Shown piece by piece: positions 31,627 through 46,289 of a stretch of DNA of 64,000 nucleotides (the stretch's first letter is position 1; every line of letters starts with the position of its first letter). The DNA comes from Escherichia phage vB_EcoM-RPN226. Position numbers and translations under genes: made by a program. Where the stretch lies: the sequence record OL770073.2; one strand, written 5' to 3'. The notes under the pieces are model-generated. The model made no database searches and had not been told where the DNA came from. It was given only the letters and a program-made list of their open reading frames with translations.

Positions 31627-32163
31627 TTATGGCCTCTCATACACGTAGCTTCTCAATTTATTAGCCCAACGACTCCAATTTCCAACTATAGTTTTTGTAT
31701 AATTTTTAACAAGAGTTTTTCTTATTGGAGCTGGAGGATTCGTTGGTTCAGTAGTATCAGAAGATGACCTAGAATTACTGCCAGAACCTCCAGATTCACC
31801 TTGTTCTTGATAGTCATATATTAATGTTACTTCGTAAGTGAATGTCTTCTGGAGGTTTTGAGGAGCTTTCCATAGATATAACTGAGTATTAGAATCAGTT
31901 GGAAGGTCTTCCCATGAAGCAGCAGTTTTAAATTCATTATCTAAACGATATTTCAACACATCATTTCCAAATCCAAACACAGATTCATACGTTCCATATA
32001 AACGATTTTCTTCTACTAAAATCCCAGGAGTTTCTTCGTAACTAGTTATATTTATAGATACTAACGTTTCACCTGTTTCTAATTGAGCGGTAAAGGTGAC
32101 GTCGATAGAAGAACCTTCCATGGATTCTCCTAAATCAGCGCTCATTGGAAGTATATTAGCCAA
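31627..32163 (-). CDS. 5.1: hypothetical protein (T4 5.1-like position)
   Basis: 178 aa, position between gene 5 region and 5.4. Confidence 0.55.
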
Positions 32164-33022
32164 TTGTTGAATTCTCTAATGATGTAAATTTATAATCACA
32201 TTTTTTCAACGCTTTTAAAATTGCGTTATAACTTACATCCGGGAGGTCGTGTTCAATTGCTTTTTCTCTAAACCATTTGTATTTCTGTGGATGTGGTTTT
32301 CCCAAATCCTCCCAAAGTTTTTTGACTTTTTCTATACTAATCCAAGGTTCAACTGATCTTAGTTTTTTATTTCTAGCATCTAATCTCGATTTTCTTATCA
32401 AAGGATCATTCCATGATTGTTTCGTTCCTTCTATTTTTCCTGGATGATTGATTAATTTGTTTCTATATTCATCAGATTTCCATAAAGATTTAACGGTATT
32501 AGAAATACGAATTTTTAATGTTGGATCATTTTCAAAAGCAGTTTTCATCGCATTACTCATTTTCTTTCGATATTCTGGCGATGCGCATCTTTCTTTGTTT
32601 ATTTTAGATATTTTCTCTGAAAATTCTTTAGTTGACGTTGATTTAGCTAATGCCTTCAATTGAGCTTTCCTATATTCAGGATTAGACCACATTCTCTTCA
32701 AATCTTCGGATGAAAAACCATCACCGCCGGATTTTATATTGGTACATAGAATATCAGATGATTTATATTTCGAAATCCAATATCTTTCTCTTGAATTGAG
32801 GATTTCATAAGTAGAAACAAATTCAATTATTTCAAAATCTATTTTATAACCAGGTTTATTACGTATCTTTTTAATATAATCACCGGAACCTCTATACTTA
32901 TCATTTTCTAAATCAAAATATCTAGATTCATGTTTACCAATATAAACCCGTACTAATCCTTTCGGATTAGTAACGGTTGTTTTATATATGTATCTAAATT
33001 GAACTGTGTTAGATTTTTTCAT
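32156..33022 (-). CDS. segC: GIY-YIG homing endonuclease (segC-like) between genes 5 and 5.1
   Basis: N-terminal GIY-YIG motifs FRYIYKTTV...VRVYIGKH...RERYWISKYKS; basic C-terminal DNA-binding region; late promoter overlapping gene 5 stop. Confidence 0.75.
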   Translation of the reverse strand: MKKSNTVQFRYIYKTTVTNPKGLVRVYIGKHESRYFDLENDKYRGSGDYIKKIRNKPGYKIDFEIIEFVSTYEILNSRERYWISKYKSSDILCTNIKSGGDGFSSEDLKRMWSNPEYRKAQLKALAKSTSTKEFSEKISKINKERCASPEYRKKMSNAMKTAFENDPTLKIRISNTVKSLWKSDEYRNKLINHPGKIEGTKQSWNDPLIRKSRLDARNKKLRSVEPWISIEKVKKLWEDLGKPHPQKYKWFREKAIEHDLPDVSYNAILKALKKCDYKFTSLENSTIG

Positions 33023-33038
33023 AATTCACCTCTGGAAT

Positions 33039-33046
33039 TATTTATA
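33039..33046 (-). promoter_or_regulatory. late promoter (TATAAATA) for segC-like gene, overlapping gene 5 stop
   Basis: TATTTATA on plus strand 17 nt upstream of the GIY-YIG ORF start, followed by SD GAGGTG. Confidence 0.55.
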
Positions 33047-34772
33047 AACCTACGTCTATACGGCTACCATCAATTGTGTATTGACCAGATGAAATAGAAC
33101 TCATAGATGCCATTTTTTCTGTCCAATCTCCACCAACGTCCCAATCAACTGTCCCAGCAACTTTCCAAGAAAGATTTCCATTTACTGTATTAGTCTGATT
33201 TCCTTCAACTAAAGTGGTAGCATCCCCTTTAACTGTAATGTCAGCATTACCTTCAACTACAATAGTAACATTACCTTTGACTAGGATAGTTCCATTACCT
33301 TCAACTGTCTTAGTTTCATCGCCACGTACAAATATTGTATTGCTTCCATCTATTTGATGGAGACGATTATCCATGTTGTAATAAATTTCTGATCCACCGA
33401 CGTTAGTCTTTTTATCGCCAGCTACCAAAAAATTACCATCAGCATTTGTTATATCATACAAATTATCAACAGTTTTTCTTGTTCTTCTTCCTGATGGTGA
33501 TACTTCCTCATATGTTCCAGTTGGATGAACTAATCTGTATCGTTCTTGTCCCGGGGTATCGTCAAATTCCTGAATATGACCGCTTTCAGTTTCCATTGTG
33601 TGAACATACGGATATTCACCTTTATATGAAGAAACAGGTTCTTTGAATAAAATTCTTGAATCATTCGGAATAGGAGGGTCAGCCGGGTCAGAAGACTTTG
33701 CTACAGTAGCAGCCATTGCCGACAAAGACCTAGCTGGTGTTTTCACTTCAATACCATATGATTCCAAATTACCGGTAAGAATAATCATGGTAACACGGGA
33801 TGCACGGCCTTTTGTTTGTTGATACCACAATGAATCACGACCAGCTTTATATGCTTTTTCCCAATCTCCGGCTAACATAGCAGTTAACATTGTGTTAAAT
33901 TTAGCTACACCGCCAACGCCCATCTGAAATGCCATATTTTCTAACGCCATTTGACGAGAACGATTAACTGCCTGCCAAACTGGGCCAACTTTAGAATGTG
34001 ATTTAATGTCACGTTGCATATCAGCTAAATCACGTTCAAATAAAGTTACCGCTTCTTCCATTGTAATAGAACCTGGATTTCCGGTAATTTCACGACCAAC
34101 TTGTTTTGATAAAACTTTATTAATTTGGGCCATATCACGAACTGGCTGCTTCATGATAAGATGACCAATACCAATTGTCGGATATCCTTCGGTATCCCAA
34201 TAAACTTTTAGTCTTAATCCTTCATCGCGGCGAAGCATTTCAGCCATTGACATATTTGGATTATCATCAATTGGAATCTCTGATAGTGGTCTATCATCAG
34301 GATTTATCGCAGTGTCTAAATTACTATCTTGGATAATATTAGAAGACGAATCATATCCTACTTCTCCGCCTTGGTTTAATACGTTAGTATCATTTCCTAG
34401 ACGTCTAGGATACTGTCCAGTCGGGTCAGAAAATCCTTCAAGTCTATTAGGCTTTTCGCGAACTATTCCACCATACGTGCCAAGGACAATTCCGTTAGTT
34501 TTCCATTTGTCTAAAAAATGACCATAAACTCTAGTTCCTTCTACCGGACCAGTAACGGAGCCTCCAATTCCAGACATTGCTGCAGAAGTTATAGGTTGAA
34601 TAACTGACATCCATGGTAATTTATCAGTTGGAATACCCATTACATCACCTTGCGCTCTTTGAGGTGGATGCAGACCAACCACACGAACACGAACACGACC
34701 TAATTTTAATGGGTCCATTCTATCTTCAACAACACCAACAAACCAATTAAGGTTATTACTTATCATTTCCAT
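33042..34772 (-). CDS. 5: baseplate hub / tail-associated lysozyme gp5
   Basis: 576 aa; central lysozyme-like domain; C-terminal beta-helix repeats VEGNxxxxVxGxxT. Confidence 0.9.
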   Translation of the reverse strand: MEMISNNLNWFVGVVEDRMDPLKLGRVRVRVVGLHPPQRAQGDVMGIPTDKLPWMSVIQPITSAAMSGIGGSVTGPVEGTRVYGHFLDKWKTNGIVLGTYGGIVREKPNRLEGFSDPTGQYPRRLGNDTNVLNQGGEVGYDSSSNIIQDSNLDTAINPDDRPLSEIPIDDNPNMSMAEMLRRDEGLRLKVYWDTEGYPTIGIGHLIMKQPVRDMAQINKVLSKQVGREITGNPGSITMEEAVTLFERDLADMQRDIKSHSKVGPVWQAVNRSRQMALENMAFQMGVGGVAKFNTMLTAMLAGDWEKAYKAGRDSLWYQQTKGRASRVTMIILTGNLESYGIEVKTPARSLSAMAATVAKSSDPADPPIPNDSRILFKEPVSSYKGEYPYVHTMETESGHIQEFDDTPGQERYRLVHPTGTYEEVSPSGRRTRKTVDNLYDITNADGNFLVAGDKKTNVGGSEIYYNMDNRLHQIDGSNTIFVRGDETKTVEGNGTILVKGNVTIVVEGNADITVKGDATTLVEGNQTNTVNGNLSWKVAGTVDWDVGGDWTEKMASMSSISSGQYTIDGSRIDVGL

Positions 34773-35359: not shown

Positions 35360-35367
35360 TATAAATA
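35360..35367 (+). promoter_or_regulatory. late promoter (TATAAATA) for gene 4
   Basis: TATAAATA on plus strand 27 nt upstream of gene 4 ATG; back-to-back with the gene 53 late promoter. Confidence 0.55.
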
Positions 35368-35374
35368 TATTATC

Positions 35375-35382
35375 TATTTATA
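35375..35382 (-). promoter_or_regulatory. late promoter (TATAAATA) for gene 53
   Basis: TATTTATA on plus strand about 30 nt upstream of gene 53 start. Confidence 0.55.

Positions 35383-45486: not shown

Positions 45487-46289
<803 letters not shown>

Follow-up and report, generated by a model that had tools for sequence, protein, structure and literature searches.

What is the open reading frame (ORF) that lies between genes 5 and 5.1 in Escherichia phage vB_EcoM-RPN226, and how does it fit between its two neighbors? We analyzed a stretch of 64,000 nucleotides (nt) from sequence record OL770073.2, hereafter the window, whose minus strand carries genes 53, 5, an ORF encoding 288 amino acids (aa), and genes 5.1, 5.4, 6 and 7 in this order. 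The ORF, which we call seg, extends from an ATG at 33022 to a TAA at 32158-32156 (32156..33022, minus strand). The window derives from a T6-like Tequatrovirus, this region being 97-98% identical to T6, ACG-C40, PYPS2T and fPS-2. Our analysis leads us to consider it likely that seg is a free-standing GIY-YIG homing endonuclease gene of the T4 Seg family, with SegF as its closest T4 relative, that it resides on a mobile cassette of 902 nt at the 5/5.1 junction, and that its product would cut genomes devoid of this cassette. A preliminary description of the locus had placed a GIY-YIG gene within 32156-33046, embedded in the late baseplate-hub operon. Coordinates and description both hold, as the ORF is real and free-standing between the genes for gp5 and gp5.1. 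That description also included a late-promoter octamer across the gp5 stop and a 3' overlap of the ORF with the following gene; both stand, whereas the label 'segC-like' does not.

The seg protein is a member of the GIY-YIG family

The nuclease domain of the seg protein comprises residues ~9-102 (32717..32998, minus), with YIY at positions 11-13, YIG at 27-29, E79 and N95. A large protein database contained 13 relatives in all, two of which are orthologue-like with identities of 86% and 78%, the remaining ones being at most 37% identical. Invariant in the alignment of the 13 homologues are Y11-I12-Y13, Y27-I28-G29, Y43-x-G45-S46-G47, E79 and N95. The profile of this family matches the catalytic domain of I-TevI (1LN0) with an E-value of 1.7e-6 over residues 5-93, aligning GIY, YIG, Glu75 and Asn90. 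Thereby, Y11-I12-Y13 and Y27-I28-G29 align with the GIY and YVG motifs of I-TevI, while E79 and N95 align with the ErE and YNIA segments of 1LN0 (E75 and N90 of I-TevI). The spacer between the GIY and YIG motifs measures 13 residues in the seg protein, because of an NPKGL-type insertion that is common to SegF. Moreover, we obtained a match to PHROG_314 ('homing endonuclease'; 1.2e-25), and PF19835 (SegE_GIY-YIG) and PF01541 were matched by 8/13 and 4/13 of the relatives, respectively (E<0.1). A sequence search of the PDB with the seg protein gave no match.

The nuclease domain is followed by a presumed DNA-binding linker (residues ~104-224; 32351..32713, minus) that is formed by ~5 tandem basic helical repeats of 17-23 aa, each of the type W/F/C-x-[SND]-[PD]-E-Y-R-x-K. 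The NUMOD3 motif was detected in 3/13 relatives, all distant, in regions that may or may not correspond to these repeats. An AlphaFold model with a predicted local distance difference test score (pLDDT) of 63 shows an N-terminal domain of beta-beta-alpha-beta-alpha topology, then helical hairpins and a terminal three-helix module. The overall layout is reminiscent of I-TevI, with which seg shares the GIY-YIG catalytic fold and the succession of a nuclease at the N-terminus, an extended linker and a DNA-binding module at the C-terminus. No zinc finger was seen in the seg protein, for which no directed search was made.

SegF, and not SegC, is the closest T4 relative

Among all nine GIY-YIG proteins of T4, SegF was the best match of the seg protein (32% over 167 aa, E 1.3e-9), followed by SegB, SegA and SegD, with SegC in fifth place (30% over 96 aa, E 1e-3). 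SegF (formerly gene 69, between 56 and soc) and the seg protein have in common the N-terminal signature (T/N)PKG...Y-x-GKHES...NDKY-x-GSG, which reads TPKGVFWYAGKHES...NDKYPGSG in SegF and NPKGLVRVYIGKHES...NDKYRGSG in the window. Both genes are free-standing and inserted beside a conserved gene. They differ in their insertion site, presumably in their target too, and in the C-terminal repeats of their products. The segF gene has been described as promoter-less and as overlapping its upstream gene by 11 bp (PMC2988022), whereas seg comes with a late-promoter octamer and a ribosome-binding site of its own and overlaps the gene downstream. Free-standing homing endonuclease genes between two conserved genes are likewise found in mobE of T4 and of Aeh1; these, however, encode HNH enzymes at the nrdA/nrdB locus, while seg encodes a GIY-YIG enzyme.

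The preliminary label implied that seg might be an orthologue or allele of T4 segC. Both are indeed GIY-YIG genes of the Seg family within the gene 5-6 interval, and the pairwise BLASTP alignment of 30% over 96 aa speaks for a relationship. This similarity is nevertheless limited to the nuclease domain and is surpassed by four other paralogues. The products also differ in their C-terminal regions and in length, with 288 aa in the window, 140 aa in T4 and 196 aa in phage LH2. The T4 gene order is 5, 5.1, segC, 5.3, 5.4, with segC between 5.1 and 5.3, and T4 segC has been described as promoter-less (PMC2988022). Thus, segC follows 5.1 and occupies another intergenic position than seg: T4 has nothing between 5 and 5.1, and the window has nothing between 5.1 and 5.4, which abut. 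Phage LH2 carries the seg gene together with a segC-type gene of 196 aa after 5.1, and the two are therefore not alleles. Judging from position, co-occurrence in LH2 and paralogue rank, we reject orthology to SegC and leave it hardly any credence.

The segC-type ORF of LH2 is continuous over its 196 aa (locus L007, 2360-2950). At the corresponding T4 locus (L001, 7197-7792), the annotated segC (140 aa) is followed by 5.3 (56 aa), the two adding up to 196 (140+56=196), and the T4 sequence reads through a TGA, after which the frame changes. T4 segC/5.3 thus gives the impression of the LH2 gene broken in two. Aeromonas phage 25 has a putative HNH homing endonuclease gene after 5.1 (L017, 601-660), which suggests that endonucleases of different families have repeatedly settled in the gene 5-6 interval.

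The inserted cassette includes the end of gene 5

Compared with empty T4-type sites, the whole insert spans 902 nt (32165..33066, minus) in place of 13 nt (ATCGAGGATTGAC), a net gain of 889 nt. Empty sites, as in T4, T2 and P8, read ...ACAATTGATGG ATCGAGGATTGAC ATTGGCTAA TATACTTCC..., and occupied sites read ...ACAATTGATGG TAGCCGTATAGACGTAGGTTTATAAATAATTCCAGAGGTGAATT ATG...seg...GAGAATTCAACA ATTGGCTAA TATACTTCC.... The left end of the cassette (33042..33066, minus) consists of recoded last codons of gene 5 and a new stop, T AGC CGT ATA GAC GTA GGT TTA TAA, the T4 counterpart being GGA TCG AGG ATT GAC ATT GGC TAA. GSRIDIG* is thereby converted to GSRIDVGL* through the changes GGA>GGT, TCG>AGC, AGG>CGT, ATT>ATA, ATT>GTA and GGC>GGT plus an added TTA (Leu). 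The product of gene 5, the baseplate hub and tail lysozyme (33042..34772, minus; 576 aa; C-terminus ...DGSRIDVGL*), accordingly exceeds T4 gp5 (...DGSRIDIG*) by one residue. The new gp5 stop is embedded in a T4 late-promoter consensus, TATAAATA. As judged from these alignments, the inserted cassette comprises not only seg but also the promoter, the stop of gp5 and its final codons, a point absent from the preliminary description. The right end (32156..32176, minus) reads GAGAATTCAACAATTGGCTAA. Its last 9 nt, ATTGGCTAA, are the ancestral gene 5 end including the stop; in the occupied site, they supply the final two codons and the stop of seg and contain the TTG at which 5.1 starts.

Might the recoded gene 5 end be ordinary lineage divergence? 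The compared genomes are identical for at least 54 nt upstream and for 142 nt downstream of the cassette, except for two window-specific single-nucleotide polymorphisms (SNPs), and the recoded block contains 12 changes in 22 nt. This abrupt transition, from no upstream differences over at least 54 nt to 12/22 nt changed, argues that the block is not background divergence. Within 500 nt on either side, the compared genomes showed no other cassette-linked polymorphism, the only such differences being the recoded block and the insertion. The recoded end was seen only in genomes that carry the cassette or its deletion footprint (see below). The GGT AGC CGT ... TTA TAA ATA block also travels with seg in F2, whose background is that of a Mosigvirus, and in a third lineage represented by a read-archive contig (L015), and empty genomes from four genera have TCN serine codons and lack the extra Leu. 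Since the block accompanies the cassette in three genomic backgrounds, lineage divergence was rejected.

The two SNPs near the cassette, at 32960 and 32023 (given as -63/+142 nt from the cassette ends), are unique to the window among the eight genomes compared; the window phage is thus identical to none of the eight.

The cassette lies directly upstream of the 5/5.1 overlap

The 3' end of seg overlaps gene 5.1 (31627..32163, minus) by the 8 nt TTGGCTAA, as the preliminary description had it, only if 5.1 starts at TTG 32163. T4-type records annotate the start at ATG 32121 instead. However, tblastn alignments of 5.1, whose conserved N-terminus reads (M)ANILP... from the TTG, begin at residue 1 in 40/40 sampled Straboviridae records, and an ATG occupies the position equivalent to TTG 32163 in RB69, JS09, L015, Aeromonas phage 25, Klebsiella VPA32 and Vibrio VH7D. 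Across those phages, the N-terminus follows the pattern M[ASV][NQDS]I[LT]P..., while the internal Met (ATG 32121) is not conserved in Aeromonas phage 25, VPA32 and VH7D. The conserved N-terminus, the ATGs and the loss of the internal Met in three phages make the upstream TTG 32163 the better-supported start, which upholds the overlap. Most likely, 5.1 of T4-type phages begins 14 codons before its annotated start, at a TTG overlapping the gene 5 stop, and the current annotations are 14 codons too short. In empty Tequatrovirus sites, the gene 5 end (ATT GGC TAA) overlaps the TTG start of 5.1 (A TTG GCT AA). The cassette sits directly upstream of this overlap, so that seg replaces gene 5 there and the start region of 5.1 is left intact.

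Distribution, loss and transfer of the cassette

We found the empty junction in 482 phage records and, with an identity of >=99%, in 464 of these. The left junction of the cassette is present in 29 records, 17 of which are identical over 70 nt, the rest being 96-99% identical; vB_SsoM_113 and LH2, the ones inspected among the latter, have a spacer without one C. A diverged allele occurs in three records (F2, its RefSeq copy and ZQ3), and its 3' end is also found on a CEV1 contig. Four further genomes (ESh36, 215Ecol030PP, LF73P3 and LF73P1) carry a deletion footprint. Here, the seg ORF is precisely deleted between two copies of an 8-bp direct repeat, TTATAAAT, which lie upstream (33040..33047, minus) and downstream (32188..32195, minus) in the window (ESh36 locus L005, 912-1035). 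What remains is the recoded end of gene 5, the final 37 nt of seg and the 5.1 start, and the octamer reads TATAAATT. This structure points to loss of the ORF by recombination between the TTATAAAT copies, and such an allele, now lacking the endonuclease, is presumably resistant. When IMG/VR was scanned for the recoded end of gene 5, a single true locus emerged among 65 chance matches; thus, no further lineages were found.

The ratio of non-synonymous to synonymous substitution rates (dN/dS) between the seg ORFs of the window and F2 is 0.09, a value that shows purifying selection on the ORF. The five Tequatrovirus alleles that we examined are all intact and differ by 0-4 amino acids. The F2 allele is a mosaic with respect to that of the window: nt 1-450 are ~70% identical with saturated synonymous sites (proportion of synonymous differences, pS, 0.83), and nt 451-867 are 91-97% identical. 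This pattern indicates that alleles recombined at ~nt 450 (F2, L004 1100-2040; CEV1, L014).

The cassette is less diverged than its surroundings in most of its carriers. Against the window, T6 differs at 3/867 positions of the cassette versus 44/1000 of the flanks (p=1.9e-9) and fPS-2 at 4/867 versus 45/1000 (p=5.8e-9), and the same contrast is seen for LH2 (p=4e-5). Taken together, the cassette is ~10x less diverged than its flanks in 3/4 carriers compared. In F2, within Mosigvirus DNA, the cassette is bordered by 44 nt of T4-type gene 5 upstream and the T4-type ATTGGCTAAT downstream, short flanks that are a co-conversion signature of cross-genus transfer. From these comparisons, recent spread and cross-genus transfer of the cassette are evident.

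With the distribution at hand, we asked whether the cassette is still functional. Our data suggest that it is probably a mobile, active SegF-like homing cassette, although several results weigh against this interpretation. Searched alone, the seg protein had no match to PF01541 or PF19835 at E<=1 and scored below threshold with TIGR01453 (19.7 bits, cut-off 56). The confidence of the AlphaFold model is low, and Foldseek with this full model returned only noise. Arg27 of I-TevI has no aligned residue, as its position coincides with an insert in the profile alignment; R34 is confined to the three close orthologues, and what the family conserves in its place is K/H after YIG and the Y-x-GSG motif. 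One carrier, vB_SsoM_113, shows no contrast between cassette and flanks (20/867 versus 27/1000, p=0.66). Only ~6% of the sequenced relatives carry the cassette although its presumed target is nearly universal, and four genomes are without the ORF after its loss. The low frequency and the four losses suggest that the homing drive may be weak.

Some of these points would fit a gene that is inactive or decaying and is kept mainly because its cassette now contains the stop of gene 5, a late promoter serving 5.1-5.4-6 and the frame upstream of the 5.1 TTG. The low frequency and the lack of an aligned equivalent of the I-TevI Arg agree with such decay, and embedded host signals are reported to favor retention of such genes (PMC2988022). 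Yet a dN/dS of 0.09 across saturated synonymous sites suggests selection on the protein itself, and the five examined Tequatrovirus alleles have remained intact. In addition, the four footprints demonstrate that the ORF can disappear while the gene 5 end and the 5.1 start persist, and the recent spread and cross-genus transfer are at odds with a decaying element. We therefore regard decay as quite improbable and favor an active homing gene.

Late-promoter octamer and expression signals

The TATAAATA octamer upstream of seg (33039..33046, minus) overlaps the gp5 stop TAA (33044-33042) and precedes a Shine-Dalgarno sequence, GAGGTGA (33026..33032, minus), located 3 nt before ATG 33022. The preliminary description had located the octamer 17 nt upstream, over the gp5 stop, and we find it there with 16 nt between octamer and ATG. 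The window contains 22 copies of TATAAATA versus 9.4 +/- 3.1 in shuffled sequences, with 0/100 shuffles reaching 22. All 22 copies are co-oriented with the local genes, and an ORF start follows 13/22 of them at a distance of 13-40 nt. Among these, the copy at 45502-45509 is positioned 13 nt before an ORF beginning MNIFE, which we take to be the lysozyme gene e, a spacing that resembles that of the seg copy. Octamer, spacer and ribosome-binding site are kept in three lineages (GGTTTATAAATAATTCCAGAGG, GGGTTATAAATAATTCAGAGG and GGTTTATAAATATTTCAGAGG), the octamer being invariant in three alleles whose nearby synonymous sites are saturated. All three elements are absent from empty sites, which implies that the promoter is cassette-borne. 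The fPS-2 record annotates the octamer as a predicted late promoter. The geometry of T4 late promoters is established and places the transcript start a few nt past the octamer. The seg transcript should thus start near A33033, with a leader of ~11 nt that begins at the ribosome-binding site, similar to the case of the MNIFE ORF.

The use of this late promoter is a prediction, and since gene 5 is itself a late gene, read-through would also supply late seg transcripts. One may even assume that TATAAATA is unused, that seg is expressed only by read-through from genes 53/5, and that the octamer persists for the last gp5 Leu codon and stop (TTA-TAA). Consistent with this, a TATAAATA copy lies 28 nt before gene 53 (35382-35375), and neither a sigma-70-like promoter nor a terminator-like site on the coding strand was predicted between gene 5 and seg. 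Moreover, 5/8 of the octamer bases fall into the Leu codon and stop, a coding constraint that tells against reading the conservation as that of a promoter, and the footprint alleles read TATAAATT. However, Leu and stop could vary synonymously, and the last three bases of the octamer (ATA) are non-coding. Octamer and ribosome-binding site are nonetheless identical in three alleles that differ at most nearby synonymous sites, the spacing matches the late-promoter-like copy 13 nt before the MNIFE ORF, and the promoter was predicted by independent annotators. Expression by read-through only thus appears rather unlikely, though it retains some weight, and we prefer a predicted late promoter acting in addition to read-through.

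In I-TevI, a late promoter is situated directly upstream of the ORF, beside a sequence related to its own homing site (PMC2988022), an arrangement to which that of seg is similar. I-TevI differs in being intron-encoded (td), whereas seg is free-standing and without a significant hairpin that sequesters the ribosome-binding site. A candidate for such a hairpin in read-through RNA, formed by UUCAUCU of gene 5 and AGGUGAA, was rejected (z=-0.66); this pairing is weakened in F2 and L015.

Two other occurrences of the octamer were observed in the vicinity. A second TATAAATA lies inside the 5.1 coding sequence (32049-32056, minus) and is present in T4 too; it is possibly an internal late promoter for 5.4/6, or a chance match. 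Between gene 53 (minus) and a plus-strand ORF, which we take to be gene 4, opposite-strand TATAAATA octamers stand back to back (35360-35382) and form what by sequence is a divergent late-promoter pair.

A conserved hairpin within the 5' part of seg

Codons 17-24 of seg (VTNPKGLV) encode a hairpin, UACUAAUCC-GAAA-GGAUUAGUA (32951..32972, minus). Folding of the 60-nt hairpin region yielded -21.2 kcal/mol with a z-score of -5.6. F2 and L015 keep the hairpin by compensatory synonymous changes, in which U-A is replaced by C-G at two pairs, and the terminal pair is flipped in F2. T4 segF has a hairpin at the same codons between GIY and YIG, AGGACGCC-GAAA-GGCGUCUU, followed by UUUUGG. An intrinsic terminator has been reported within the segF 5' end, and T4 mobE, like segF, contains an internal 5' terminator hairpin (PMC2988022). 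Unlike that of segF, the seg hairpin has an AT-rich stem and a poor U-tract, and attenuation is thus no more than plausible. The site is terminator-like on the antisense (+) strand too.

Discussion

How, then, might the cassette propagate? We propose that seg would be expressed late in infection, both from transcripts that read through from the late promoter of genes 53/5 and from a late promoter of its own. Its product may contact DNA with the C-terminal helical repeats and possibly a helix-turn-helix module, and genomes without the cassette would be cleaved at the conserved 5/5.1 junction or close to it, a candidate site being GATGG|ATCGAGGATTGACATTGGCTAA in the empty allele. In mixed infections, the cut genome would be repaired by recombination with a cassette-bearing one and would thereby acquire the cassette together with short flanking tracts. 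The splitting and recoding of the site would make occupied and footprint alleles resistant. SegF and SegG cut hundreds of base pairs from their insertion sites; a target at the junction is hence not assured and could lie elsewhere, which counts against this part of the proposal, although the vicinity holds no further difference linked to the cassette.

One could go further and view the cassette as a self-contained insertion module for a gene overlap. Its portable recoded gene 5 3' end might serve both as the immunity determinant and, abutting the late promoter, as an I-TevI-style autorepression operator. The translational coupling of the TTG of 5.1 would have moved from gene 5 to seg, and the covarying, segF-like hairpin might act as an attenuator that limits the nuclease. 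We offer this extended view as speculation that, taken as a whole, we consider unlikely.

The labels 'seg-like' and 'Seg-like GIY-YIG' are already present in the T6 and vB_SsoM_113 records. Our literature searches retrieved no paper on an endonuclease gene located between 5 and 5.1; the gene was met only in database annotations such as these labels and the predicted late promoter. The seg gene is an uncharacterized lineage of the Seg family and offers nothing conceptually new for T-even phages; the way it is inserted, the footprints, the mosaic allele transferred across genera and the hairpin in common with segF add useful detail but no new principle. Two annotations are corrected, in that the gene is not segC and the start of T4-type gp5.1 lies most likely 14 codons earlier. 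The candidate target is well defined and almost invariant, the 5/5.1 junction being >=99% identical in 464 genomes. The whole life cycle of a homing gene is visible among sequenced phages, i.e., as empty, occupied, cross-genus mosaic and deleted alleles, the last with a recoded site. The locus thus presents a convenient natural system for intron-less homing, for how a selfish gene enters overlapping genes without breaking them, and for how internal hairpins and late promoters may limit a nuclease.

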